Below, piece by piece: positions 5,703-64,000 of a DNA stretch of 64,000 bases. The first letter of the stretch is position 1, and every line of letters begins with the position of its first letter. The stretch is from the IMG/VR virus record IMGVR_UViG_3300024255_000004, one strand, 5' to 3'. The notes under the pieces are model-generated. The model searched no databases. It saw only the letters and a list, made by a program, of their open reading frames with translations, and was not told where the DNA came from. Source of the DNA: a virus. A program made the position numbers and the translations under genes.

Positions 5703-6905
5703 ATGGGTGCAAAAAATCTACATTTAGAACACTTAGAAGACGAGATTATCAATCAAGGGATTGATGGTGGTCGTGGTGCTATAAACTTTTTACAGGGTCT
5801 TAGAGACATGTTAAAAGGAAACTCTAATTCAAGTGTTAATATGACTGTTAAGTGGGACGGAGCTCCTGCTATTTTCTGTGGTCAACACCCCGAAACTAAT
5901 CAATTCTTTGTTGCAAAGAAATCTCTATTCAATAAAGAACCTAAGTTTTACACTTCAGAACATGAAATTAAAAATGCAGACGAACTAAGTGGTGCATTAA
6001 AAGAAAAGTTCTTAACTTCATTTCAATGTTTATCTAAACTATCTTGGAATACAATCATGCAAGGTGATTTAATGTATACCAATGATAAGAAAATGCAAAA
6101 GATTGACGGAAAATCATTCGTCACATTCCAACCAAATACAATCATGTATGCAGTAGATATTAATTCAGATTTAGGTAAAGAGATTGCAAACTCTAAAATG
6201 GGTATTGTGTTTCATACCACATACACTGGTTCTACAATAGAAGACTTGGGTGCAAGTTTTGGTGCAAACATATCTAAACTAGGAAACAGTAAAGATGTTT
6301 GGATTGACGATGCAACATATAAAGATGTCAGTGGTAAAGGTTCAATGACTGCAAAAGAAACACTTACACTTACACAAGAACTATCCAAAACAGGTAAAGC
6401 CTTCCACGGAATCAAAAAGAAAGATTTAGATAAGTTCCAAAAAATACAGGAAGAGATTGGAAAGAAAGGTGCTGGTGCATCTTACAAAACATATTGTAAT
6501 ACACTTATCAGAGGTGGTAGTTTCAATCCAACATACAAAGGATATATGGAACACTTCGAAAGCTACTGGAGAGATAAGGTGGTTGCAAAGGTCAAAATGG
6601 AAAAGACCAAACAAATCAAACAAGAGATTGGTGAACAACTTTATAACGAACTCAGAAGTTTAAAGAACATGATAACTAATCTAACTTCCTTTATGGGACA
6701 CCTAGTAGTTGCAAAACAACTTATCATAAATGCACTAAATAGAGTAAAGAGTATAGGAACTTTCAAAAAGACTGCAAATGGTTTTGAGGTAGTAAACCCC
6801 GAAGGATACGTTGCAATCGATAAAACAGGAAGTGCAGTTAAACTTGTAGACAGAATGGAGTTTGCATTCAATAACTTCACTGCACAAAAATCATGGGACA
6901 AGTAA
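5703..6905 (+). CDS. Conserved T4-like phage protein with RNA-ligase-like nucleotidyltransferase motifs (recalled as DUF6267-like)
   Basis: TVKWDG (motif I KxDG), QGDLMY (III-like), PEGYVA (IV EGxV), VKLVDR (V-like). Confidence 0.65.
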   Translation: MGAKNLHLEHLEDEIINQGIDGGRGAINFLQGLRDMLKGNSNSSVNMTVKWDGAPAIFCGQHPETNQFFVAKKSLFNKEPKFYTSEHEIKNADELSGALKEKFLTSFQCLSKLSWNTIMQGDLMYTNDKKMQKIDGKSFVTFQPNTIMYAVDINSDLGKEIANSKMGIVFHTTYTGSTIEDLGASFGANISKLGNSKDVWIDDATYKDVSGKGSMTAKETLTLTQELSKTGKAFHGIKKKDLDKFQKIQEEIGKKGAGASYKTYCNTLIRGGSFNPTYKGYMEHFESYWRDKVVAKVKMEKTKQIKQEIGEQLYNELRSLKNMITNLTSFMGHLVVAKQLIINALNRVKSIGTFKKTANGFEVVNPEGYVAIDKTGSAVKLVDRMEFAFNNFTAQKSWDK

Positions 6906-8314
6906 TGAAATCATTCAATGCATTTCTAACAGAAGCTAAAGATAAGGGTGTAGTGTTTACTTTTGGTAGATTCAATCCACCTACAACAGGTCATGGAAAG
7001 TTAGTAGACAAACTTAAAAAACAATCGGGTGGTGATGACGTTCTGTTATTCACTTCACATTCAAATGACAAGGTTAAAAATCCACTATCACACCGAGACA
7101 AGATATCGTATCTAAGAAAATTCTTTGGGAAGATTGTTGCAGACGTAAATGCAAGAACAGTATTTGAGATTGCAACAGAATTACATAAGAAGAAATATAA
7201 AAGAGTCTCAATGGTTGTTGGGTCAGACAGAGTAAAAGAGTTTGAAACACTACTAAACAAATACAATGGTGTTAAAGCACGTCATGGATTCTATAAGTTC
7301 GAAGAGATTAATATTGTATCTGCTGGAGAGAGAGACCCTGATGCAGATGATGTCAGTGGAATGTCTGCAAGTAAACTCAGAGGATATGCAGAACAAGGAG
7401 ACTTTGACAATTTCAAATTAGGTGTTCCAACAAAGAATAAAGGATTAGTTCAGAAACTTTATAACGATATCCGTAAAGGAATGGGTATTGCAGAAGGAAC
7501 ACTACCACACTACATGGTAGAAGATTTGATACAAGAAGGAGTCTATGACCCAGGCACTTTCAAAGCAGTTTTCCTAAGTGGTGGGCCAGGCAGTGGTAAA
7601 TCTGCAGTTGTAAAGAAATTAGGTTTGACTGCACTTGGTTTAAAAATGGTCAACACTGATAAAGCATTTGAGAACGGACTAAAGAAAGCAGGAATGTCAC
7701 TTGACCTTAGAGGTGCAGACTTTGATAAAGTAGACCCTATCCGTGCAAAAGCAAAAAGTATTACAGGTAAAAACTTAGATGCATATATCGATGGAAGACT
7801 AGGTCTTATCTTTGACACTACAAGTGCAAAGTCGGGTAAGATTAAGAACTACAAAAAAATGTTAGACACATTAGGATATGAATACAAAATGATATTTGTT
7901 AATGCAAGTCTAGACAATGCACAAAAAAGAAATGACTTAAGGTCTAGAAAACTACCACCCAAAATTGTAAAAGGTGACTGGGACGCTGCACAAAAGAATG
8001 CAACGGAATATAAATCAATTTTTGGTAGAGACTTTGTAGAGATTAAGAATGATGATGACATTGCAAGTCTTGATAAAAAGGCAAATTCACTATACAGTAA
8101 ACTACTAGGTTGGTCTACTTCATTCCCTAAAAACAAAATTGCAATGAAATGGAAATCTTACGAACTGATGAAGAAGACTCTTGGGTATTCATCTATGAGA
8201 AGTAAAGATGCGGTGAAAAAACCACCAACAGATAAACCAAGTCCGTTTGGGTCAAATTTAAAAACATTCAAAAGTAGAAGGACTGGTAAGAAGACAGTAA
8301 TCGGAAAGATATAA
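6905..8314 (+). CDS. Cytidylyltransferase-like (HIGH superfamily) domain fused to a P-loop kinase (AAA_33/zeta-like); IP-like N-terminus
   Basis: MKSFNAFLTEA; FGRFNPPTTGH, VVGSDR, MSASKLR; then FLSGGPGSGKS, NTD, IFDTT, lid-like RNxxRxR. Confidence 0.85.
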   Translation: MKSFNAFLTEAKDKGVVFTFGRFNPPTTGHGKLVDKLKKQSGGDDVLLFTSHSNDKVKNPLSHRDKISYLRKFFGKIVADVNARTVFEIATELHKKKYKRVSMVVGSDRVKEFETLLNKYNGVKARHGFYKFEEINIVSAGERDPDADDVSGMSASKLRGYAEQGDFDNFKLGVPTKNKGLVQKLYNDIRKGMGIAEGTLPHYMVEDLIQEGVYDPGTFKAVFLSGGPGSGKSAVVKKLGLTALGLKMVNTDKAFENGLKKAGMSLDLRGADFDKVDPIRAKAKSITGKNLDAYIDGRLGLIFDTTSAKSGKIKNYKKMLDTLGYEYKMIFVNASLDNAQKRNDLRSRKLPPKIVKGDWDAAQKNATEYKSIFGRDFVEIKNDDDIASLDKKANSLYSKLLGWSTSFPKNKIAMKWKSYELMKKTLGYSSMRSKDAVKKPPTDKPSPFGSNLKTFKSRRTGKKTVIGKI

Positions 8315-8317
8315 ATA
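8310..8317 (+). promoter_or_regulatory. T4-type late promoter
   Basis: TATAAATA immediately upstream of ORF 8323. Confidence 0.75.
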
Positions 8318-8322
8318 GTATT

Positions 8323-9798
8323 ATGTTAGAAGAACTTAGAGAAAAATTACGTAAGACCCAACAAGACAAAGAAGTTGAAGGCAAGAAAGGTTCTCAACCT
8401 AAGAAGTATTATGCTAAAGACGCAGACGGAGACGAAATGTCTCAGTCTACAAAAGATAAACGTGCAGACCACTTTAAGAATAATAAAGATAAAGAAGGTG
8501 AAGATGCATTTAAACCAGCACCTGGCGATTCAAAAGCAGATACTAAACCTTCACAACATACTAAGAAGTATAAGAAAATGTTTGGAGAAGGTGCAGCTGA
8601 TAAATCTCTACAAAAGAAAGCAGACAAGAGTGGAATGCCAGTTGGTATTCTAAAACAAGTCTACAAACGTGGAGTTGCAGCTTGGAAAGGTGGACATAGG
8701 CCAGGAACTACACCCGAACAATGGGGACATGCACGTGTTAATTCTTTTGTGACTAAATCCAGTGGAACATGGGGTGGTGCAGACCAAGACCTTGCAAAGA
8801 AAGTTTCGGGTAAATCAGAGTCAATAGAAGAAGGAATTGATATCAGAAAACAACTCAAAAAGATTAAAGGATTAACTAAGAAACAATTAGAAACATTATC
8901 AACAATGAACACTTCACAACTAACAGTTTTAGTTCAACAGTTAAGTGGTTTGGTTATGGGTGAACAAGACGAGTTAGAAGAAAGATATGCAGATAGACTA
9001 AGAGACAAAAATAAGTCTCAACAAAAGGCACATCAAAAAAGAATGATGAAGTCTGCAAAAAAATCTATCAAAGACTATGATGCAAAGAATAAGAACAAGA
9101 ACGAAGAGTCTGAAGTAGAAGAAGGTAAACTTGTCACTGATTACAGAAGTGTCTTAGATTTCATATTTAAAAATATCAAAAAGATGATTGAAAAGGAATA
9201 TGAAAAGAACTCTGAAAAAGGTTTAGGAATGATTAATCAGTTAGGTTCTTATGTTGGAATGAAAGTCACTGATAAGAAACAGGAGAAAAATAGACTCTTC
9301 CTTAAGTTTGGTGACAACATACAAGAAGACGCTACAGTTGACGCTGCAAATCTAAAAGCAAAACAAACTGAAGAACTAGAAAGATTAAAGGCAAAACAAT
9401 TACAAGAGTTAGAAGCACTACAAGATAGACACGAAAGAGAAACAGACAAAGTCAATCAACAGAAAGAAAAAGAAGCTGCAAATAAACAAATTCAAGCAAA
9501 ACGTGATGCAGATAGAAAAGCTGCAGAGAAACAAAACGAAGAAAGAGATTACAAAAAAGAGTATGAGAACTACCACTCAGACCCCGAACAAATTAAAAGA
9601 CGTGCAAAAAGAAATGAAGCACGAAGAAGTCTAAAGGACAGAAAAGGTATAAAAGGAAAGGACGTTCACCATAAGGACAACAATCCTATGAATAATGACA
9701 AGTCTAACTTATCAATTGTATCACAAAAATACAATAGAACAGAACCAAGACTTAGAAAATTGAAAGAGAAGGGGATACTTCCAAGTGGCAGGAAATAA
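8323..9798 (+). CDS. Multi-module, probably capsid-internal protein with a C-terminal HNH-like nuclease module
   Basis: Module LKQVYKRGVAAWKGGHRPG...WGHARVNSF; C-terminal KDVHHKDNNPMNNDKSNL..YNR; modules separated by xxE sites. Confidence 0.7.
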   Translation: MLEELREKLRKTQQDKEVEGKKGSQPKKYYAKDADGDEMSQSTKDKRADHFKNNKDKEGEDAFKPAPGDSKADTKPSQHTKKYKKMFGEGAADKSLQKKADKSGMPVGILKQVYKRGVAAWKGGHRPGTTPEQWGHARVNSFVTKSSGTWGGADQDLAKKVSGKSESIEEGIDIRKQLKKIKGLTKKQLETLSTMNTSQLTVLVQQLSGLVMGEQDELEERYADRLRDKNKSQQKAHQKRMMKSAKKSIKDYDAKNKNKNEESEVEEGKLVTDYRSVLDFIFKNIKKMIEKEYEKNSEKGLGMINQLGSYVGMKVTDKKQEKNRLFLKFGDNIQEDATVDAANLKAKQTEELERLKAKQLQELEALQDRHERETDKVNQQKEKEAANKQIQAKRDADRKAAEKQNEERDYKKEYENYHSDPEQIKRRAKRNEARRSLKDRKGIKGKDVHHKDNNPMNNDKSNLSIVSQKYNRTEPRLRKLKEKGILPSGRK

Positions 9799-38942: not shown

Positions 38943-40166
38943 ATGAAAATCATTGGAATTAATTCAAGCCACGACACTTCCTTGTGTCAATACGATACTG
39001 AGACTGGTATTTTAGAATTCATGCACGAAGAAGAACGTTTCAGACGTGAAAAATACTGGACACCAACCGCAGTGCAACAAGGTGACGAGGGTTTTGAGAC
39101 AACCTACCCCGACCAACTCCAGTGTATTCACAAAGGTGGTGTAGAGACACCCGATAAACTGGTCATGGCAAGTTTTGACAGACGTAATGTCGAACTTAAA
39201 ATAAACAATCAGAAATTAATGGAAGACAGAATGTTGTCTATTGAAGTTGCAGACTATGTTCGTAGTGAACCTATGACCAATCAAAGGTTAGAAGACTTTT
39301 GTGAGAAGTTTGGTGAGTTTGGTGTCGTTGACGGAATCGGTTATGGTGGTGAACACATAGAGGAATATATTCATGACGGGTTCGCAGCACAGTTCGAAGG
39401 TGATTTAGAGGATTATTATTTTTGGTTTGAACACCACATGTATCACGCATATTGTGGTTATCACTTAAGTCCGTATATAGAACAACAAGAAGACGCAATC
39501 GCAATCGTCATGGACGGAGGTGGTGCTAGGTTGAACTATGACACTATGGCGGGGTATCAAGAGATTGAGTCTATCTATAGAATGTCACCCAACCAACCAG
39601 CAAAACGTCAATGGGTTCTTAGTTCGAACCACAGATTCTTAGGTGATTTAAAAGGTTCAAACTTTCCAAATCAACAGGAAGGAACACTGGACTACATGGG
39701 TGAGAACCTTACAGAGATTGAAGACGGAGTTATCTATGAGTATACGTCACGTGCGTCCAATGGTATGGACTTCAGTAATATGAGTCATGCACTGGGTTGT
39801 GACCACCAAGGACGTGCCGCAGGTAAGGTCATGGGTATGGCAAGTTATGGTATTGTTGATTCAGATTATAAACGTTTTAATAAATTCTCCATATCACAAG
39901 AGTTAGAACTCAATGCATTTGAAGAGACTTGTAAAACAATTCAAAAAGCAATCGACATGAATGTCGACTGTAAGAATATAGTATTGAGTGGTGGATACGC
40001 ACTCAACTGCACGAACAACTACAAATATTTAAGTCGTTTCCCCGAACACCAATTTTACGTAGACCCTATTCCGCATGACGGAGGAACTGCTTTTGGTGCT
40101 TGTATACACTTAGAATATTTAATGAAAACTGGAGAAGAGAATAATGCTACTAACACGGATACATAG
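38943..40166 (+). CDS. Carbamoyltransferase (NodU/CmcH/TobZ family), N-terminal Kae1-like domain
   Basis: GINSSHD, EERFRR, EHHMYHA, MDGGG, GKVMGMASYG, LSGGYALN, DGGTAFG. Confidence 0.88.
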   Translation: MKIIGINSSHDTSLCQYDTETGILEFMHEEERFRREKYWTPTAVQQGDEGFETTYPDQLQCIHKGGVETPDKLVMASFDRRNVELKINNQKLMEDRMLSIEVADYVRSEPMTNQRLEDFCEKFGEFGVVDGIGYGGEHIEEYIHDGFAAQFEGDLEDYYFWFEHHMYHAYCGYHLSPYIEQQEDAIAIVMDGGGARLNYDTMAGYQEIESIYRMSPNQPAKRQWVLSSNHRFLGDLKGSNFPNQQEGTLDYMGENLTEIEDGVIYEYTSRASNGMDFSNMSHALGCDHQGRAAGKVMGMASYGIVDSDYKRFNKFSISQELELNAFEETCKTIQKAIDMNVDCKNIVLSGGYALNCTNNYKYLSRFPEHQFYVDPIPHDGGTAFGACIHLEYLMKTGEENNATNTDT

Positions 40167-40758
40167 AAATTTAAAAGACGTTCTAGAAGAGATAATCGAG
40201 AACAAACAAATCGTTGGAATGTTTCAGAACTCTTCTGAGTGGGGGCCTCGTGCATTAGGTAATCGTAGTATTCTCTTTGACCCACGTCACCCACACGCAA
40301 AACAAATTGTTAACGAAGTTAAGAAACGTGAAGACTATCGTCCCTTCGCAGGTTCAATCCTTGCAGAAAGAGCTCATGAGTATTTCGAAATGTTGCAACT
40401 TAAAGAATCACCGAACATGTCTTTTGCGATTCAAGCAAAACAAAAAGCATATGACGAGATTCCTTCACTGGTTCATGCAGACGGAACATGTCGTATACAG
40501 ACAGTGACCGAAGAACAGAATCCTAATTATTATAATTTAATTAAAGGGTTTGGTGAATTAACAGGGACACCGATTATATTTAATACTTCATTCAACTTAG
40601 GTGGTGAATCATTGGTTGAGAATATCTATGACGCAATCTCTACATGTAATCGTTCAGAGATTAATCATTTATATATTCCCGAAGACCAAGACATTCATAT
40701 CCCTTACGAATTAATTGCAGATAAAAGAACGAACTATCCTAAGAAGAAAGACAATTAA
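40144..40758 (+). CDS. Carbamoyltransferase C-terminal (YrdC-like) domain as a separate gene
   Basis: EWGPRALGNRSIL, VKKREDYRPFA, HADGTCRIQTV, NTSFN; own GGAG RBS. Confidence 0.9.
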   Translation: MLLTRIHRNLKDVLEEIIENKQIVGMFQNSSEWGPRALGNRSILFDPRHPHAKQIVNEVKKREDYRPFAGSILAERAHEYFEMLQLKESPNMSFAIQAKQKAYDEIPSLVHADGTCRIQTVTEEQNPNYYNLIKGFGELTGTPIIFNTSFNLGGESLVENIYDAISTCNRSEINHLYIPEDQDIHIPYELIADKRTNYPKKKDN

Positions 40759-40771
40759 CATAAATAACTCT

Positions 40772-41098
40772 ATGATAGAGGTTTCAGACATTGCAATCCA
40801 AAAACTACTAGAGAGAAAAGTTGAGTCAGTAAGACTTGGTGTCACTGGTGGTGGTTGTGCTGGTTTCGAATATGTTTTTGCAGAAGACAATTATCAAGAG
40901 GGAGACGAAGTCATAGACTATGGTAAGTTCTCTTTTCTTATAGATAAAAACAGTCAACCCTTTTTAAAAGGAATGACATTAGATTATATTAAAGAAGGAT
41001 TAAATGAATTTTTTAAATTCATAAATCCAAATGAACAATCAGCATGTGGTTGTGGAGTGAGTGTGCAATTCAATGAAAACATCATCAGCAAAAGCTAA
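40772..41098 (+). CDS. iscA: A-type Fe-S carrier IscA/HesB
   Basis: GGGCAGFEY, LDY, NPN..CGCG. Confidence 0.93.
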   Translation: MIEVSDIAIQKLLERKVESVRLGVTGGGCAGFEYVFAEDNYQEGDEVIDYGKFSFLIDKNSQPFLKGMTLDYIKEGLNEFFKFINPNEQSACGCGVSVQFNENIISKS

Positions 41099-41411
41099 AG
41101 GAAGAAAACTACAACAGTGGTTTGCAAATGTCCTTGTAGAGACACTAGGACTCGATTCAGAGGATTTAGAATCAAGACCTATGGGTTCACAAGGGGAAGA
41201 CATTATACTCGGTAGACAGAGTCGAGACGTTTTTCCATTTAGTATAGAATGTAAGAATCAAGAAGCCGTCAACGTATGGAAAGCATACGAACAAGCTTCT
41301 GAAAATTGCAAAGGGTATGAACCCCTTGTAGTTATAAAAAGGAATCGTCATAAACCATTAGTGGTTATAGACGCAGAAAAATTTGTTCAATTAATTAAAC
41401 ATGAGGAATAA
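41073..41411 (+). CDS. PD-(D/E)xK nuclease, Holliday-junction-resolvase-like
   Basis: KAKGRKLQ, GEDI, IECKNQE. Confidence 0.7.
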   Translation: MKTSSAKAKGRKLQQWFANVLVETLGLDSEDLESRPMGSQGEDIILGRQSRDVFPFSIECKNQEAVNVWKAYEQASENCKGYEPLVVIKRNRHKPLVVIDAEKFVQLIKHEE

Positions 41412-42828
41412 AAACTTGTTATCTTTCAACGAACTCATTACTGAGGAAAAAAGTAATGATAAACCATATCGACTTGTAATCATTGCAGAACGTCGCATGG
41501 TCAAGAGGGCAAAGAAGAATGCAGATAAACCTGTAGTAAAAAAACCCAGTTCGACTTCCAGTAAACTTTACAACATTGCAAAAGAGAATGGTTGTGAAGT
41601 GTATAGTGTTAAAGTGAATGGTGCATACATTGAACGTGCCGATAACGGAGTCATTACCATTCATAACCAAGATGACGAAAAAGGATTTGAGTTAGATGCA
41701 GATACCATTGTTATGGTTCGTGGTGCTGTCACAGCAAAAGATTCCTACTTAGATTTAATCAGTCAGATAGAAAGATACGGATTCCCTGTAGTTAATTCAA
41801 GGGAGTGTATCGAAGTGTGTGCAGATAAGTTTAGAACTTATTTACGACTACAAGAAATCGGAATGAACCAACCGAAAACAGTTTTGATTCCAAACGAGGA
41901 TTCTGAGACTGTAGACTTAGCTGCAAAAAGACTAGGAAACAAATTCCCAATGGTTCTAAAGACACTTCAAGGTGCAAAGGGGGTTGGTGTATTACTTGTT
42001 GAAACGGAACGTTCTCTGCAGTCTACAGTGAGTCTAGTGTATAAGATTGACCCTAATTGTGATATCCTAATTCAAGAGTATATTGAAATGGAATATGATG
42101 TTCGTGTTATGATTAATAACAAACGAATCATAGGTTCAATGAGAAGGAATAAAATTATTGATGATTTCCGTTCTAACATTTCACAAGGTGCAGAAGCAGA
42201 AGAGATTGAATTAACAGAACTAGAAAAAGAAACTTGTCTTATCGCTGCAAAAGCAGTAAACGGACAATGGGTTGGTGTTGACTTTATTCCTGCGAAAGAC
42301 AGAGAAAAAGATTCACCTTATATGTTAGAAGTCAATCAGTCGCCAGGTTCACAAGGAATCTCTGATGCGATTGGTAAAGAAGTTTGTGAAACAATTATAG
42401 AAGACTACATGGACAGAAACATATGGAAGAAGAGTGCAACTGAATGTGGTGTTCTCGAGACCATAGAGGTCGATGGTGAGACGATGACTGCAAAGCTAGA
42501 CACTGGGAACAGTGCAGCTGCTTGTGCCCTTCACGCAGACTCTTATGAGATTAAAGGTAAGGTTGTTCACTTCACACGTAATGGTAAGAAATTTAAAAAA
42601 CCTTTGGTCAGAAAAATTACATTACTCAAACCTGCTGAAACTCGACCAGTGGTTAAGTGTGAGTTAAACTTCTTAAATACTATATATGAACAAGAAGTCA
42701 GTTTAGACCAAAGAGGTAAAATCCCTTTTCTTGCAAATAGAGATTTTATGAATCGTGCAAACTTAATGATTAACCCGTCTAGGAAATTCCTATTGACCAA
42801 CAAACACGATACTGCAGAAGAAAACTAA
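41401..42828 (+). CDS. RimK-family ATP-grasp ligase fused to a retropepsin-like (RimB-type) aspartyl protease
   Basis: DKFRT, PKT, VLKTLQGAKGVGV, IQEYI..DVRV, FRSNISQG, GVD, LEVNQSPG; then AKLDTGN, RPVV, L..R..FLANRDF. Confidence 0.88.
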   Translation: MRNKNLLSFNELITEEKSNDKPYRLVIIAERRMVKRAKKNADKPVVKKPSSTSSKLYNIAKENGCEVYSVKVNGAYIERADNGVITIHNQDDEKGFELDADTIVMVRGAVTAKDSYLDLISQIERYGFPVVNSRECIEVCADKFRTYLRLQEIGMNQPKTVLIPNEDSETVDLAAKRLGNKFPMVLKTLQGAKGVGVLLVETERSLQSTVSLVYKIDPNCDILIQEYIEMEYDVRVMINNKRIIGSMRRNKIIDDFRSNISQGAEAEEIELTELEKETCLIAAKAVNGQWVGVDFIPAKDREKDSPYMLEVNQSPGSQGISDAIGKEVCETIIEDYMDRNIWKKSATECGVLETIEVDGETMTAKLDTGNSAAACALHADSYEIKGKVVHFTRNGKKFKKPLVRKITLLKPAETRPVVKCELNFLNTIYEQEVSLDQRGKIPFLANRDFMNRANLMINPSRKFLLTNKHDTAEEN

Positions 42829-59498: not shown

Positions 59499-61964
59499 TT
59501 ACCAAGTTGGAACTGGAGATAACTTACCTTGTGTAGGTTCGTCATTCATAGTCTTAGGTGCATTAACATTGGTATAAGTTTGTCCACTGTTATTGTTAGT
59601 GACATTCGACATAACATTTGAATTGGTTGTTGTGGTTCCACTTGCAGAGTAAGTTTCCATTCTTTGACCTTTGATATTATTACCAGTGTTTGGATTTCCA
59701 GCTGCAGTTATTTGTGTTTCAGTATACAAGCCAGGATACTTAGCATTGTGTTCCATCATTCTTTGTTGGAGTTTATTGTATCTTTCTTTCTCTACAATAA
59801 ATGCATTTCGCACCTCTGCCATTTCCATAGACATTGCAGAATCCGACGCAGGTTGAATATAATCTCTGTCTCTTTTAGTTTTTCTTCTTACAAGTTTCTC
59901 TTGAGGTTCATTTATTGCCATTCTGTCTCTGTCTCTTTGAGTTTCTTTTCTTATAAGTTTCTCTTCGGACTGTTCCATTTGACCTTCAATTCTTTCTTGT
60001 TCGGTAGTTCCCATAACTTTACCAGCAAGACTTTTCATCTTTTCATACCAAGACAATTCTTTAGGGACACCTTTGTCAAGTCTAATCATTGCTTCTGTTA
60101 GTGTGTCTATTGCTTCTGAGAAATTATTAAGGTTATTGGTTGAAGGTTTTAAATTCTTAAACATGGTAATTACATTACCAACACTACCTAAGTTTTTGAA
60201 TGCTTCACCTAAGTCAAGTAGAGGTTTCATATTTACATTTTCTAAACCTTTTGCAAACTCAGTGACCTTTTCCATTGGTGATTTTGCACCAAATAAACTT
60301 CCTAAACCTTCAAGTAAACTTCCTATAAGACTACCACCAGTCATTGCTACTAGACCAGCACCGATTGCAGCTAATCCAGCACCGACTGCTATAAGGTTTA
60401 ATCCGTCAACTTGACTTAACATCATTATGTCTGGCACAAAATTTCCGAATGCTTTTGCAGCTAAGTCAGCTGCATATGCAAATGGAATTAAAGATGCACC
60501 TAGTAAACCAATTGCAAGAGCTCCTAGTGCAATTAGTGGAACAAAACTACCTAGTAATGCAGCTGCAACACCTAGTGTTATTAATGCAGCTGCAATAACA
60601 CCTATGGTTCCAAGTCCAACGTCTTTCATTAAGTTAAGTGAAAATGCAAGTGGAACCATTGCAGCTCCAAGTGCTAAAACGGCTAATGAACCTTTGAGCA
60701 TTGCACCTGTTGACCTTCTTAACATTTTTGCAAGTAAAACTAATCCAGTCATTGCAATTAGACCTTTACCCATTTGTTTAAAGTCTACACCATTAAATTG
60801 TTTTAATCCTATTGCAAGTAGTCCTACTGAACCTCCTAATAGTGCCATAGAGATTGCACCTTTAAGAACTTTACTATCTCCAAACTTCTTAACACCTTCT
60901 GCAATACTTTTTAGGAATCCACCACTCTTACTTCCTTTAGAAGGTATGATTGATTTGTCTGCAGTTGAAGGTAATGCCTTTGCAATTGCACCTTCTTTCT
61001 CACCTTTCTTACTACCAAGTATACTACCCAGCATTCCTTTCTTATCACCTGAATCAGATTGAGATTTTTCTCCTCTACTAAAGACACTAGTCACACCTTC
61101 AAGTGCAGGCCCGAACTTCTCTTTGAATTTTTTCACGGGATTCTTTAATGCATCACCGATACCTTTCATTACGTCACCGAATGCATTTATCTTTTTAGTA
61201 AAGGTGTCTGCCATTCCAAGTAAGTCAATACCTATTAGTTCGTCTAGTCCTTCACTGAACTTGGTCATTCCTTTGTAGTCAGTTGCTTTCTCTAAACCTT
61301 TTTTATACTCTTCAGTAGTTGATTCTAATGCGGCACTTCTTACTTCTAAAGTTTCTTTTTCTTTGTCTATCTCTCTTTGAATCGCTGCAGTGATTTCTTT
61401 TTCTTTTTGCTCTCTTAATTCTTCAACTCTTTTAATCTCCGACATGGTGAAATTCAAGGCACCACCTTGAAGAGTTTTAGACTTAACCTCTAACTCTGCT
61501 AATTCTTTATCTAATTGACCAAGAAGATGATTTTTCTGCATTGATTTATCTATTCTTGCTTGTCTAGCGTCTTCAAGTTCTGAGATTTTATCTTGGGTCT
61601 CATTGAATTCTATTTGTGCATTTCTCATTCCATCGAAATCGAAAGTTTGCATTACACCATCAATCTCTTGTGAAAAATTACTTTGTAGTGCTTTGAGTTC
61701 TTTAGGGTCAAGTGCATCTTGACCTTCTTTCATGTATTTGTCGACAAGACCAGTTAATCCTTTTAACTTCTTAGTGGCTAATGCACCCTTAAAGGTATCT
61801 TTGCTAGACGCTCTAAAGTCTGCAGTAATCTTTGCAATCTGAGGGGAAGCTTCTTCAAGATTTTTAATAATCTTTTGAAATCCAGGCTTTAACTCTTTGT
61901 TAACGTCCCGTATTTCTTTTGCAAATTCTTCTCTCTGTTGCTTTATAGTTTTGTCATCAGCCAT
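59499..61964 (-). CDS. Probable tape-measure / baseplate hub (gp29-like) protein
   Basis: 821 aa; coiled-coil N-terminus, long Ala/Gly/Leu hydrophobic repeat core, Asn/Thr-rich C-terminus; downstream of gp26/gp51-like genes. Confidence 0.7.
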   Translation of the reverse strand: MADDKTIKQQREEFAKEIRDVNKELKPGFQKIIKNLEEASPQIAKITADFRASSKDTFKGALATKKLKGLTGLVDKYMKEGQDALDPKELKALQSNFSQEIDGVMQTFDFDGMRNAQIEFNETQDKISELEDARQARIDKSMQKNHLLGQLDKELAELEVKSKTLQGGALNFTMSEIKRVEELREQKEKEITAAIQREIDKEKETLEVRSAALESTTEEYKKGLEKATDYKGMTKFSEGLDELIGIDLLGMADTFTKKINAFGDVMKGIGDALKNPVKKFKEKFGPALEGVTSVFSRGEKSQSDSGDKKGMLGSILGSKKGEKEGAIAKALPSTADKSIIPSKGSKSGGFLKSIAEGVKKFGDSKVLKGAISMALLGGSVGLLAIGLKQFNGVDFKQMGKGLIAMTGLVLLAKMLRRSTGAMLKGSLAVLALGAAMVPLAFSLNLMKDVGLGTIGVIAAALITLGVAAALLGSFVPLIALGALAIGLLGASLIPFAYAADLAAKAFGNFVPDIMMLSQVDGLNLIAVGAGLAAIGAGLVAMTGGSLIGSLLEGLGSLFGAKSPMEKVTEFAKGLENVNMKPLLDLGEAFKNLGSVGNVITMFKNLKPSTNNLNNFSEAIDTLTEAMIRLDKGVPKELSWYEKMKSLAGKVMGTTEQERIEGQMEQSEEKLIRKETQRDRDRMAINEPQEKLVRRKTKRDRDYIQPASDSAMSMEMAEVRNAFIVEKERYNKLQQRMMEHNAKYPGLYTETQITAAGNPNTGNNIKGQRMETYSASGTTTTNSNVMSNVTNNNSGQTYTNVNAPKTMNDEPTQGKLSPVPTW

Positions 61965-61976
61965 TTACGTTATGTC

Positions 61977-62363
61977 CTATTTTCCACCGAATGCTTTACC
62001 AGCTTCACTGATACCAAATGCACCAAGTGTCACTACCACAAATGATGTGTAGATTGTTTCTGAAACTTTTAAATCCATATCAAATAATAATGCAGTCATT
62101 AGGTCTGTTATTCCAAACACTACCATTAAAAAGAAAGATATAAAACCTATAATAGATTTCTCATTTATGTCATTGTCATCTAAAAACAAATCCATTACTT
62201 TTCTTTTAGGGGGTGCTAATCCAGCACGTGCCTTCTTAGCTTCCTCTTGCATTTCTTTAATGTTGTCTTCTTGTTCATCGAGTTTATCGATAAGAGCCAT
62301 GTATTTCTCTAAGGAAATCTCTACTTCATTGGTTGACTTATCCTTTTCGTCTTTATCACCCAT
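61977..62363 (-). CDS. Membrane protein (two TM)
   Basis: DDNDINEKSIIGFISF..SFVVVTLGAFGISE. Confidence 0.7.
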   Translation of the reverse strand: MGDKDEKDKSTNEVEISLEKYMALIDKLDEQEDNIKEMQEEAKKARAGLAPPKRKVMDLFLDDNDINEKSIIGFISFFLMVVFGITDLMTALLFDMDLKVSETIYTSFVVVTLGAFGISEAGKAFGGK

Positions 62364-62380
62364 AATACTATCCTTCTTGA

Positions 62381-62521
62381 TTATCTACGAGACTTTGCGT
62401 TCTCCGCTTGTTGTCTCTGTTTTTCTTCTTCAAGATGTTGCATGAGAAGTTTAATGTAAATTTCTCTTTCCCAAGGAATCATATTATCTAACTCAGTTAA
62501 TGAATACTTGTGGTGTTGCAT
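62381..62521 (-). CDS. 51: Baseplate hub assembly catalyst gp51-like; frame extends 5' to the gp26 slippery site
   Basis: Read manually: MQHHKYSLTELDNMIPWEREIYIKLL. Confidence 0.8.
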   Translation of the reverse strand: MQHHKYSLTELDNMIPWEREIYIKLLMQHLEEEKQRQQAENAKSRR

Positions 62522-62574
62522 TAACTGAAAGTTAGTGTTATAATGATTGAACACACTTTCATGAGAAAGAGCTA

Positions 62575-63279
62575 TTAAAAAAAATTCTGTATTCCTTCTA
62601 GCTTCGTCTTGTTCTCTTCACTACAAGTTTTGCAATTCCACTCTACTGTTGCATTGAGTTTTGGTAATTTATCATACCAGTCACCTAACACTTCTAGTTG
62701 AGGGAAAGTCAATGATTCTACAAATTCATTTATCTCAACTCGAGTTAAATCTGCACCTTCATAAACCTGTTCTTCATCAAATATGTTTACTATAGATTCT
62801 TTAATTAGTTCTACCGACTGGTTGGACTCGTCAAGGTCTTGTATCTTCTCGACATGTTCAACTGTTGGGACACTAAGTGTTAAACCCACTTTATCAGTAA
62901 TCATGACTTCTTTTGATTCGGGAACTTCACCATCTACTTGTATCTTGTCGAGATGTAGGACATAATCCTCTGTCTCTGAACATTCAGGATTTCCACAAGG
63001 GAACATTAATTTTGATGTTTCCCCTACTGAAACTTTCCTAACTTGAATGAATAACCATTCTAAGTCCGTAGTTGGTAAGTTCTCAATAACAACTTTGTCA
63101 TTGGTCACTGCTTGCAATAATTTTTTAACGGATTGCATAGTCCGTTTTGCATCTTCACCTTCCTTAGCTTGAACTAAGATATTCTGTTCTTTAACTAGAA
63201 ATGGTCTGTATTCTATTGTTTGACCACTTACAGGAAGAACTGTCGTATATGTCGGTGTTGCCTGTATAGGTAATGCCAT
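62575..63279 (-). CDS. 26: Baseplate hub subunit/chaperone gp26-like
   Basis: MALP..P.Y..YRPFLVKE, DLEWLFIQVRKVSVGE, CxxxxC and CxxC pairs, ends LEGIQNFF. Confidence 0.85.
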   Translation of the reverse strand: MALPIQATPTYTTVLPVSGQTIEYRPFLVKEQNILVQAKEGEDAKRTMQSVKKLLQAVTNDKVVIENLPTTDLEWLFIQVRKVSVGETSKLMFPCGNPECSETEDYVLHLDKIQVDGEVPESKEVMITDKVGLTLSVPTVEHVEKIQDLDESNQSVELIKESIVNIFDEEQVYEGADLTRVEINEFVESLTFPQLEVLGDWYDKLPKLNATVEWNCKTCSEENKTKLEGIQNFF

Positions 63280-63304: not shown

Positions 63305-64000
63305 TTAACCATCTCCACCAATTCCAAGACCACGGATTGTTCGTCCTATGTTCCCAGCACGGGTAATTTGGGTATCTGCAGAACTTAACTTAGTTAAGTA
63401 TTCTCCAGCCTTTGGACTAAACCTTGAAGCAACTTTGAGAGTATCAAGTGTTGCATCTAATAGTCCACGTCCTGTATTTATACCACTAGAACTACTTGCA
63501 TCATTAGTCATTGGTTCTATAACTCGTGGTTCGTCTGTATTTTCAGGATACGAGATAACAAAATCTGAATATGCCATATCTACTGAAAATTTTAATAGGG
63601 GTTCTTGACTGTCTGCATCTAAAGACATTTCTGCATAACTCAAAGGATATGCATTAAAGAATTCATATCTCATAGCAGGAGAACCACTTATTCTTAGTTG
63701 TTCTATCATCATTCCCCCAGCATATTCGTTATAATATCTCATGACTGGTTGACGTAGTGTTCCTCGGTTTTGTCCTGCTCTATTGTCTGCAGTGAAAGAA
63801 GCCTCTTTTGCAGACTGAATTGGTTTTCCTTCATATATCTTTTGTTGCCATTGTTCAAAAATGATTCTATCTAAGAAACTACTGGTGCATATAAACTCTA
63901 AAGTAATAGAATCTCCATAGTCTATTGTTCCATCAGGGATTTCTCTACTACCCGACCAACCTGTATCTTCAGTGTTTGTTCCTAATGTTATTCCAGGCAA
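63305..64000 (-). CDS. Baseplate/tail-tube junction (gp54-like, tail-tube fold) protein, 5'-truncated
   Basis: REIP..YGDSITLEF..FEQWQQKI..YYNEY..IEQL..AYP; upstream of gp26. Confidence 0.65.
   Translation of the reverse strand: MPGITLGTNTEDTGWSGSREIPDGTIDYGDSITLEFICTSSFLDRIIFEQWQQKIYEGKPIQSAKEASFTADNRAGQNRGTLRQPVMRYYNEYAGGMMIEQLRISGSPAMRYEFFNAYPLSYAEMSLDADSQEPLLKFSVDMAYSDFVISYPENTDEPRVIEPMTNDASSSSGINTGRGLLDATLDTLKVASRFSPKAGEYLTKLSSADTQITRAGNIGRTIRGLGIGGDG

Follow-up and report, generated by a model that had tools for sequence, protein, structure and literature searches.

A probable programmed -1 frameshift joins gp26-like and gp51-like reading frames in a T4-like phage

Tail genes near the end of the window

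We analyzed 64,000 nucleotides of DNA from an uncultured marine T4-like phage (IMG/VR record IMGVR_UViG_3300024255_000004), which we will call the window. Near one end of the window is a group of tail genes, all on the minus strand. The features that we will discuss are:

63305..64000, minus strand: gp19-like tail tube gene, truncated where the window ends (phrog_45, tail tube, E = 3.9e-20)
62575..63279, minus strand: gp26-like gene, encoding the short chaperone form, TAC-N (PF12322, phrog_150, and a Shine-Dalgarno motif)
62593..62598, minus strand: Shine-Dalgarno-like GAAGGA (codons for Glu-Gly), 8 nt upstream of the heptamer; candidate dnaX-type stimulator
62578..62584, minus strand: putative slippery heptamer U_UUU_UUU (T_TTT_TTT in the DNA) in the X_XXY_YYZ phase, adjoined by the 0-frame stop UAA at 62575..62577
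62381..62581, minus strand: -1 frame extension, 66 codons and a stop (phrog_634, E = 3.6e-25; phrog_150 positions 242-280)
62522..62578, minus strand: linker LIALSHESVFNHYNTNFQL, the 19 -1-frame codons from the heptamer to the Met that is annotated as the start of gp51 (wobble pattern)
61977..62363, minus strand: ORF of 128 amino acids, hydrophobic in its C-terminal half, that has a Shine-Dalgarno motif (AAGGA) (position, composition)
59499..61964, minus strand: tape-measure-like protein of 821 amino acids, with a coiled-coil N-terminus and a Gly/Ala-rich hydrophobic centre (position, size, composition)

The gp26-like ORF (62575..63279) encodes 234 amino acids and ends with ..LEGIQNFF*. Its ATG is preceded by a strong Shine-Dalgarno motif (GTGAGGAAA). 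Residues 9-234 match PF12322 (T4_baseplate; E = 3.7e-51, 174.3 bits, where the cut-off is 24.5 bits), and the protein also matches phrog_150 (“baseplate hub”, E = 1.4e-52). The tail tube gene lies directly upstream. (Its match to PF06841, with E = 2.3e-06, is slightly below the cut-off.)

The 3' end of the gp26-like ORF reads CAG AAT TTT TTT TAA (codons 62589..62575), with a run of 8 T's at 62584..62577. As originally predicted from the sequence, the heptamer T TTT TTT lies directly before the stop codon, at 62584..62578, and it is in the right phase. The -1 frame reads FF-LIALSHESVFNHYNTNFQL-MQHHKYSLTELDNMIPWEREIY... and, again as predicted, is open into a gp51-like peptide: there is no stop until the TAA at 62383..62381. 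Joining residues 1-233 to the extension by a -1 shift gives a long form (TAC-NC) of 299 amino acids. For the extension, an ORF finder yields just a 57-amino-acid piece that begins with GTG. It has matches to phrog_634 (“baseplate hub assembly catalyst”, gp51) and also to the last 40 positions of phrog_150, which is the profile for gp26.

The gene order is tail tube, chaperone, the 128-amino-acid ORF, and the 821-amino-acid ORF. The gp26/gp51 pair had been described as lying just upstream of a tape-measure-like gene. There is such an ORF downstream, but the 128-amino-acid ORF (61977..62363) intervenes. Profile searches against the phrogs and Pfam found no family match for the 128-amino-acid ORF. 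Phage Melnitz has a small ORF, of 109 amino acids, in the same position (L002 2725-3054). Contigs from two RNA libraries have a 3-nt deletion at 62347, near the start of the 128-amino-acid ORF, which resembles strain variation.

The 821-amino-acid protein has no match to PF25671, and its BLASTP alignment to T4 gp29 is not significant (E = 0.48). In the ESM Atlas, its neighbours (0.93 and 0.90) bear the name of tape measure proteins, which we treat as just a lead. By its composition and this lead, we call it tape-measure-like and no more.

The remainder of the window contains large-phage genes for replication and nucleotide metabolism. Among the replication genes, at 6893-9798 and 38943-42828 on the plus strand, are cytidyltransferase-like, carbamoyltransferase-like, and glutaminyl-transferase-like genes, which possibly have DNA- or surface-modification functions.

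Conservation of the junction in related phages

To compare the junction across relatives, we ran blastn on 50,697 phage records, with the 5-kb tail segment as the query. Nucleotide similarity was confined to the gp26/gp51 junction, and the matches were to cyanophages and to the Methylophilales phage Melnitz, whose gp26 proteins are about 35% identical to the gp26 of the window. We then assembled a larger set of loci: 32 were found via the gp26 protein, 80 were found via an alignment of the extension, and we added isolate genomes from several families. In the loci analyzed, the ORF upstream of the junction in the 0 frame is the size of gp26.

Among 93 distinct junctions (from 94 related loci), all 93 have TTTTTTN at the same phase and place; searching with the extension biases the set towards loci that have an extension, and neither the upstream TTT nor the phase was imposed. 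The last base of the heptamer varies (T in 45 junctions, C in 36, A in 11, and G in 1). There is a 0-frame stop codon at most two codons past the heptamer in 88 of the 93 junctions. From the heptamer onwards, every junction has an open -1 frame, while upstream of the T run, a stop in the -1 frame is found within 1-20 codons, and in about 14 loci it abuts the run. The heptamer is also present in distant lineages: the GC-rich Acidovorax phage ACP17, Aeromonas phage CC2, Rhizobium phage P10VF, and a KVP40-like vibriophage. So the heptamer of the original prediction proved to be invariant in the junction alignment.

Could the T's be explained by the conservation of the two phenylalanines? We considered 86 junctions that are under 90% identical to each other at the nucleotide level. 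The six T positions have zero entropy, and the two synonymous positions that help to form the run are T in 86 of 86 junctions. As a background from the same genes, TTT accounts for 0.72 of the Phe codons, and the wobble position is T with a frequency of 0.76 (two-fold sites) or 0.41 (four-fold sites). Elsewhere in the gp26 genes, Phe-Phe is mostly encoded by TTC TTT. Also, the heptamer is kept even if the second residue is Leu (TTA or TTG) instead of Phe. By these comparisons, the T run at the junction is beyond what would be expected by chance.

Position-specific entropy across the same 86 junctions shows which frame evolves as protein. Up to the heptamer, the periodicity is that of the 0 frame, and from the heptamer on, it is that of the -1 frame. 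In codons 4-19 of the linker, the first and second positions are nearly fixed and the third position is free. For example, the three positions have entropies of 0.58, 0.00, and 1.71 bits for a Leu codon, 0.32, 0, and 0.92 bits for a His codon, and 0, 0, and 0.99 bits for an Asn codon. The core of the “gp51” peptide has the same wobble pattern. Judging by this pattern, the linker evolves as protein-coding sequence; in other words, there is amino-acid conservation upstream of the gp51 Met, which is what a fusion would predict.

We also asked if translation of gp51 could begin within the -1 frame. The Met at 62521..62519 is conserved in 81 of 86 junctions. The lack of an obvious ribosome binding site for this Met, which had been pointed out for the window, turns out to be general: a Shine-Dalgarno-like motif precedes it in just 6 of 84 cases, as compared to 65 of 83 for the start of gp26 and 51 of 81 for the downstream gene. 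The linker of the window has a single canonical start codon, the GTG at 62554, and there is no Shine-Dalgarno motif upstream of it. In most loci there is no ATG ahead of codon 19 or 20, and in one locus (L103) there is none ahead of codon 33. Given the coding pattern of the linker, the missing ATGs, and the rarity of Shine-Dalgarno motifs at the Met, independent initiation fails to account for the observations as a general rule. About a tenth of the junctions do have an ATG among the first five codons of the -1 frame (for example, P-SSM2, P10VF, and the vibriophage), and coupled re-initiation is possible in these phages.

T4 gp51 and the fold of the shared domain

In T4, genes 26 and 51 are transcribed divergently, so no frameshift can join them. 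T4 gp51 (249 amino acids) nevertheless has the architecture of the conceptual long form. Its residues 1-201 match PF12322 (E = 3.9e-52), and it covers phrog_150 positions 13-280. We used MAFFT to align the conceptual -1 products from eleven phages with gp51 from T4 and from Serratia phage 4S. The alignment has no gap through the predicted junction, where the window reads ..QNFFLIALSHESVFNHYNTNFQLMQHHKYSLTELDNMIPWERE. At the level of sequence, the -1 join yields the pattern of the long form, which is a gp26-like domain followed by ..NF.LM.H..YSL.E...M.P.ER... T4 gp26 ends three residues past the aligned FF.

T4 and Serratia phage 4S each have a separate gp51, and their gp26 genes (L043 3803-4429 and L042 2004-2621, respectively) encode the FF with TTC TTT, so that they have lost the slippery run. 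On the evidence of these alignments, T4 gp51 is a paralog of gp26 with the extension attached, and the gp26 and gp51 of T4 are short and long forms that have become fixed as two paralogous genes. The window's phage and T4 would share the PF12322 family and a short/long pair, with the long form colinear with T4 gp51. They differ in that T4 and its close relatives have two separate, divergent genes and no T run, while this phage has one gene with a slip site.

Among the 120 best database homologs of the gp26-like protein, we found one in which gp26 and gp51 are fused in frame (P0054, 295 amino acids, from one ENA contig). The fusion reads ..SFF-LIALSH.., which is the same as the predicted join. 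P0054 could come from a naturally occurring variant whose T run is longer, or it could reflect a homopolymer error. The precomputed list of Pfam matches for P0054 includes PF28602.1, for the extension.

We used P0054 as a natural fused homolog to model the structure of the long form. The AF2 model, based on an alignment of gp26 homologs and extension peptides, had a mean pLDDT of 88 and a pTM of 0.75. The extension is helical in this model, with lower confidence over 230-270. We compared the model exhaustively to 48,161 chains with VIA-align. The top matches were 3fgx_B (Z = 7.7), 3klu_A (YqbN, Z = 7.1), and 2ob9_B (the HK97 tail assembly chaperone, Z = 6.9), and the next match had Z = 5.4. 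All of these scores are under 8, which is graded as middling. The three top chains align to residues 1-94 of P0054, over 84-85 residues and with an rmsd of 3.7-4.4. These three structures are the solved tail assembly chaperones (PMC9603447). On the other hand, Foldseek comparison of the model to PDB found nothing at E ≤ 0.001, and a sequence search of PDB with the gp26 profile found no relevant match. The modeled resemblance of the shared domain to the solved tail assembly chaperones is supportive of a chaperone function, but it is not conclusive.

A model for expression of the two forms

We think it quite likely that one gp26-like gene gives rise to both the 234-amino-acid and the 299-amino-acid chaperone via programmed -1 ribosomal frameshifting on U_UUU_UUU. 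Most ribosomes would stop at the UAA after ..NFF, which would give the short form, the counterpart of T4 gp26. In a minority, the two Phe-tRNAs would re-pair with UUU UUU after a backward slip by one base on U_UUU_UUU, and these ribosomes would read 66 more codons in the -1 frame, which would give the long form, the counterpart of T4 gp51. The helical C-terminal extension of the long form would be the small “gp51” of the databases. The original prediction that this “gp51” is the C-terminal extension of a gp26-51 fusion is supported by the heptamer, the linker, the colinearity with T4 gp51, and the chaperone-like domain. By analogy to gpG/gpGT of phage lambda, the shared domain might coat the tape measure protein and the extension might recruit another tail or hub protein. 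Neither form would be expected in the finished virion; in T4, both proteins are listed as chaperones for assembly of the hub, and the particle does not contain gp51 (PMC3004832). We infer the ribosomal nature of the slip, its efficiency, its stimulators, and the binding partners of the two forms.

What might stimulate the slip? For 86 ungapped junctions, we gave RNAalifold the region between -60 and +130 relative to the heptamer. It yielded no consensus structure (the alifold energy was 0.0), and so none that is conserved over the 130 nt past the heptamer. For single sequences, the z-scores of the minimum free energy were weak (mean of -0.86). With no conserved structure downstream, any stimulator would be unconventional or absent. 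One candidate is the 0-frame stop that adjoins the heptamer. Another is the upstream Shine-Dalgarno-like motif: 79 of 86 junctions have such a motif 6-16 nt upstream of the heptamer (GARGG, at 8-9 nt). This is confounded because the Glu-Gly that it encodes is conserved as amino acids. The wobble position before the Gly is G in 38 of 83 cases, which is a modest excess over the background of 0.30. So GARGG is a possible dnaX-type stimulator, or it may simply be conserved Glu-Gly, and the evidence is not decisive.

The -1 frameshift in E. coli dnaX involves a homopolymeric heptamer, a nearby stop codon in either the old or the new frame, a Shine-Dalgarno-like element about 10 nt upstream, and a downstream hairpin. 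The phage junction shares the homopolymeric heptamer, the nearby stop, and the upstream element (here a candidate stimulator), but dnaX uses a downstream hairpin, and none is conserved among the relatives of this phage. With lambda gpG/gpGT, the phage shares overlapping ORFs after the tail tube gene (here upstream of an ORF that is tape-measure-like by composition and the Atlas lead), a heptamer near the end of the first ORF, and an N-terminal domain that would be common to the two forms. Sequence similarity to lambda gpG/gpGT is not detectable. The domain in this phage is about twice as large as in lambda, with an extra beta-rich part, and in the structural model it is the N-terminal ~90 residues of P0054 that resemble the HK97 chaperone. 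Also, the slippery sequence is U_UUU_UUN with the stop immediately adjacent, while lambda's is G_GGA_AAG.

The same long form could instead arise during transcription. If RNA polymerase stutters on the run of 6-8 T's and adds one U to some of the mRNAs, then standard reading would give the 299-amino-acid form. The signal is a homopolymer, with 8 T's in the window; there is no conserved downstream RNA structure; and because the product would be identical, all of the comparative evidence fits equally well. However, efficient transcriptional slippage usually needs 8-9 or more T's, so that six is short, and exactly six T's are present in 48 of the 93 junctions. Nor is there a trend towards longer runs: what is strictly kept is the heptamer, together with a stop at most two codons later. 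RNA-library contigs from four studies cross the T run without an indel, but these reflect the dominant form only and might include DNA, so they count for very little. Overall, we consider slippage by the polymerase to be unlikely, and it is similarly unlikely that the long form is due to a phage-modified host RNA polymerase stuttering on the T run or to contributions at both levels. If polymerase stuttering were the mechanism, then transcriptional recoding would be very widespread for this structural gene of phages, and it would explain the lack of a conserved RNA stimulator.

We give even less weight to the idea that gp51 is a separate small protein, initiated from the Met, from the GTG at 62554, or by reinitiation after termination at the gp26 stop, which works with gp26 non-covalently; this seems very improbable. 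The Met is usually kept, as discussed above, and an ATG overlaps or adjoins the gp26 stop in P-SSM2, P10VF, the KVP40-like vibriophage, and Vibrio phage K364, which moreover lacks an in-phase heptamer. But the 19 codons leading up to the Met have the conservation of coding sequence, though most loci lack a start codon in that stretch, and the Met rarely has a Shine-Dalgarno-like motif (6/84). A separate protein would also leave the invariance of the heptamer at synonymous sites unexplained, and the T4 homolog of this segment lies within gp51. Finally, homopolymers are error-prone, and the one fused ORF (P0054) is from a single contig, so one might imagine that the arrangement is a chance overlap or an assembly error with no biological meaning. 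The arrangement recurs across 93 distinct junctions, which come from independent assemblies as well as from the genomes of isolates in several phage families, and we give this idea almost no credence: it is effectively refuted by the conservation of the junction, the switch in the entropy pattern, and the T's at synonymous sites.

Ribosomal frameshifting in this family appears to have been reported already. Xu, Hendrix and Duda (2004), as summarized in PMC5009743, described a conserved -1 frameshift in tail assembly chaperone genes, and that review (Atkins et al. 2016, PMC5009743) describes G-T frameshifting as a conserved feature of long-tailed phages “except T4”. More recently, Vladimirov, Gautam and Davidson (Virology 2022; 566:9-15, PMID 34826709) has been cited for frameshifted tail chaperone genes in T4-like phages. 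The PRFect paper (PMC10885494) cites it for T4-like phages having a short gene and a long fused gene, and PMC12846349 credits it with poly-T -1 frameshift signals in T4-like TAC-N genes. Going by these citations, the principle appears to have been published in 2022, and our locus would be a further well-supported example, with statistics.

If frameshifting is the correct explanation, then the textbook exception (“except T4”, PMC5009743) is closed, as the T4 lineage would have the same short/long pair of chaperones. Most relatives of T4, including abundant marine ones, would use recoding, while T4 itself uses a duplicated gene. Frameshifting would also explain why gp51 of cyanophages is so short: it was reported to be about 20% of the length of T4 gp51 and to lack the first ~200 residues (Sullivan et al. 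2010, PMC3037559). And the invariant T_TTT_TTN followed by a stop would provide a simple rule for correcting the annotation of phages.

Public records annotate the extension wrongly or omit it. The records of P-SSM2, Melnitz, and the KVP40-like phage treat it as a small gene of its own. In GenBank or RefSeq, the ORF for the extension is not annotated in ACG-2014i (L003 2464-2649), ACP17 (L036 2253-2420), or Aeromonas phage CC2 (L038 2211-2381).

Two other phages have a gp51-like peptide in the -1 frame after gp26 and no in-phase T_TTT_TTN. In Vibrio phage K364 (L037 2170-2410), the junction reads CTT TTT GCG TAA TGATG, and the gp51-like ORF has its own ATG, which overlaps the stop. In Salmonella phage SJ2, from the Ackermannviridae (L041 2200-2420), the junction reads ATT TTC ATT TAA; the gp51-like ORF is not annotated, and its homology extends to the 5' side of the first ATG. 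Some other solution may be in use in these lineages.
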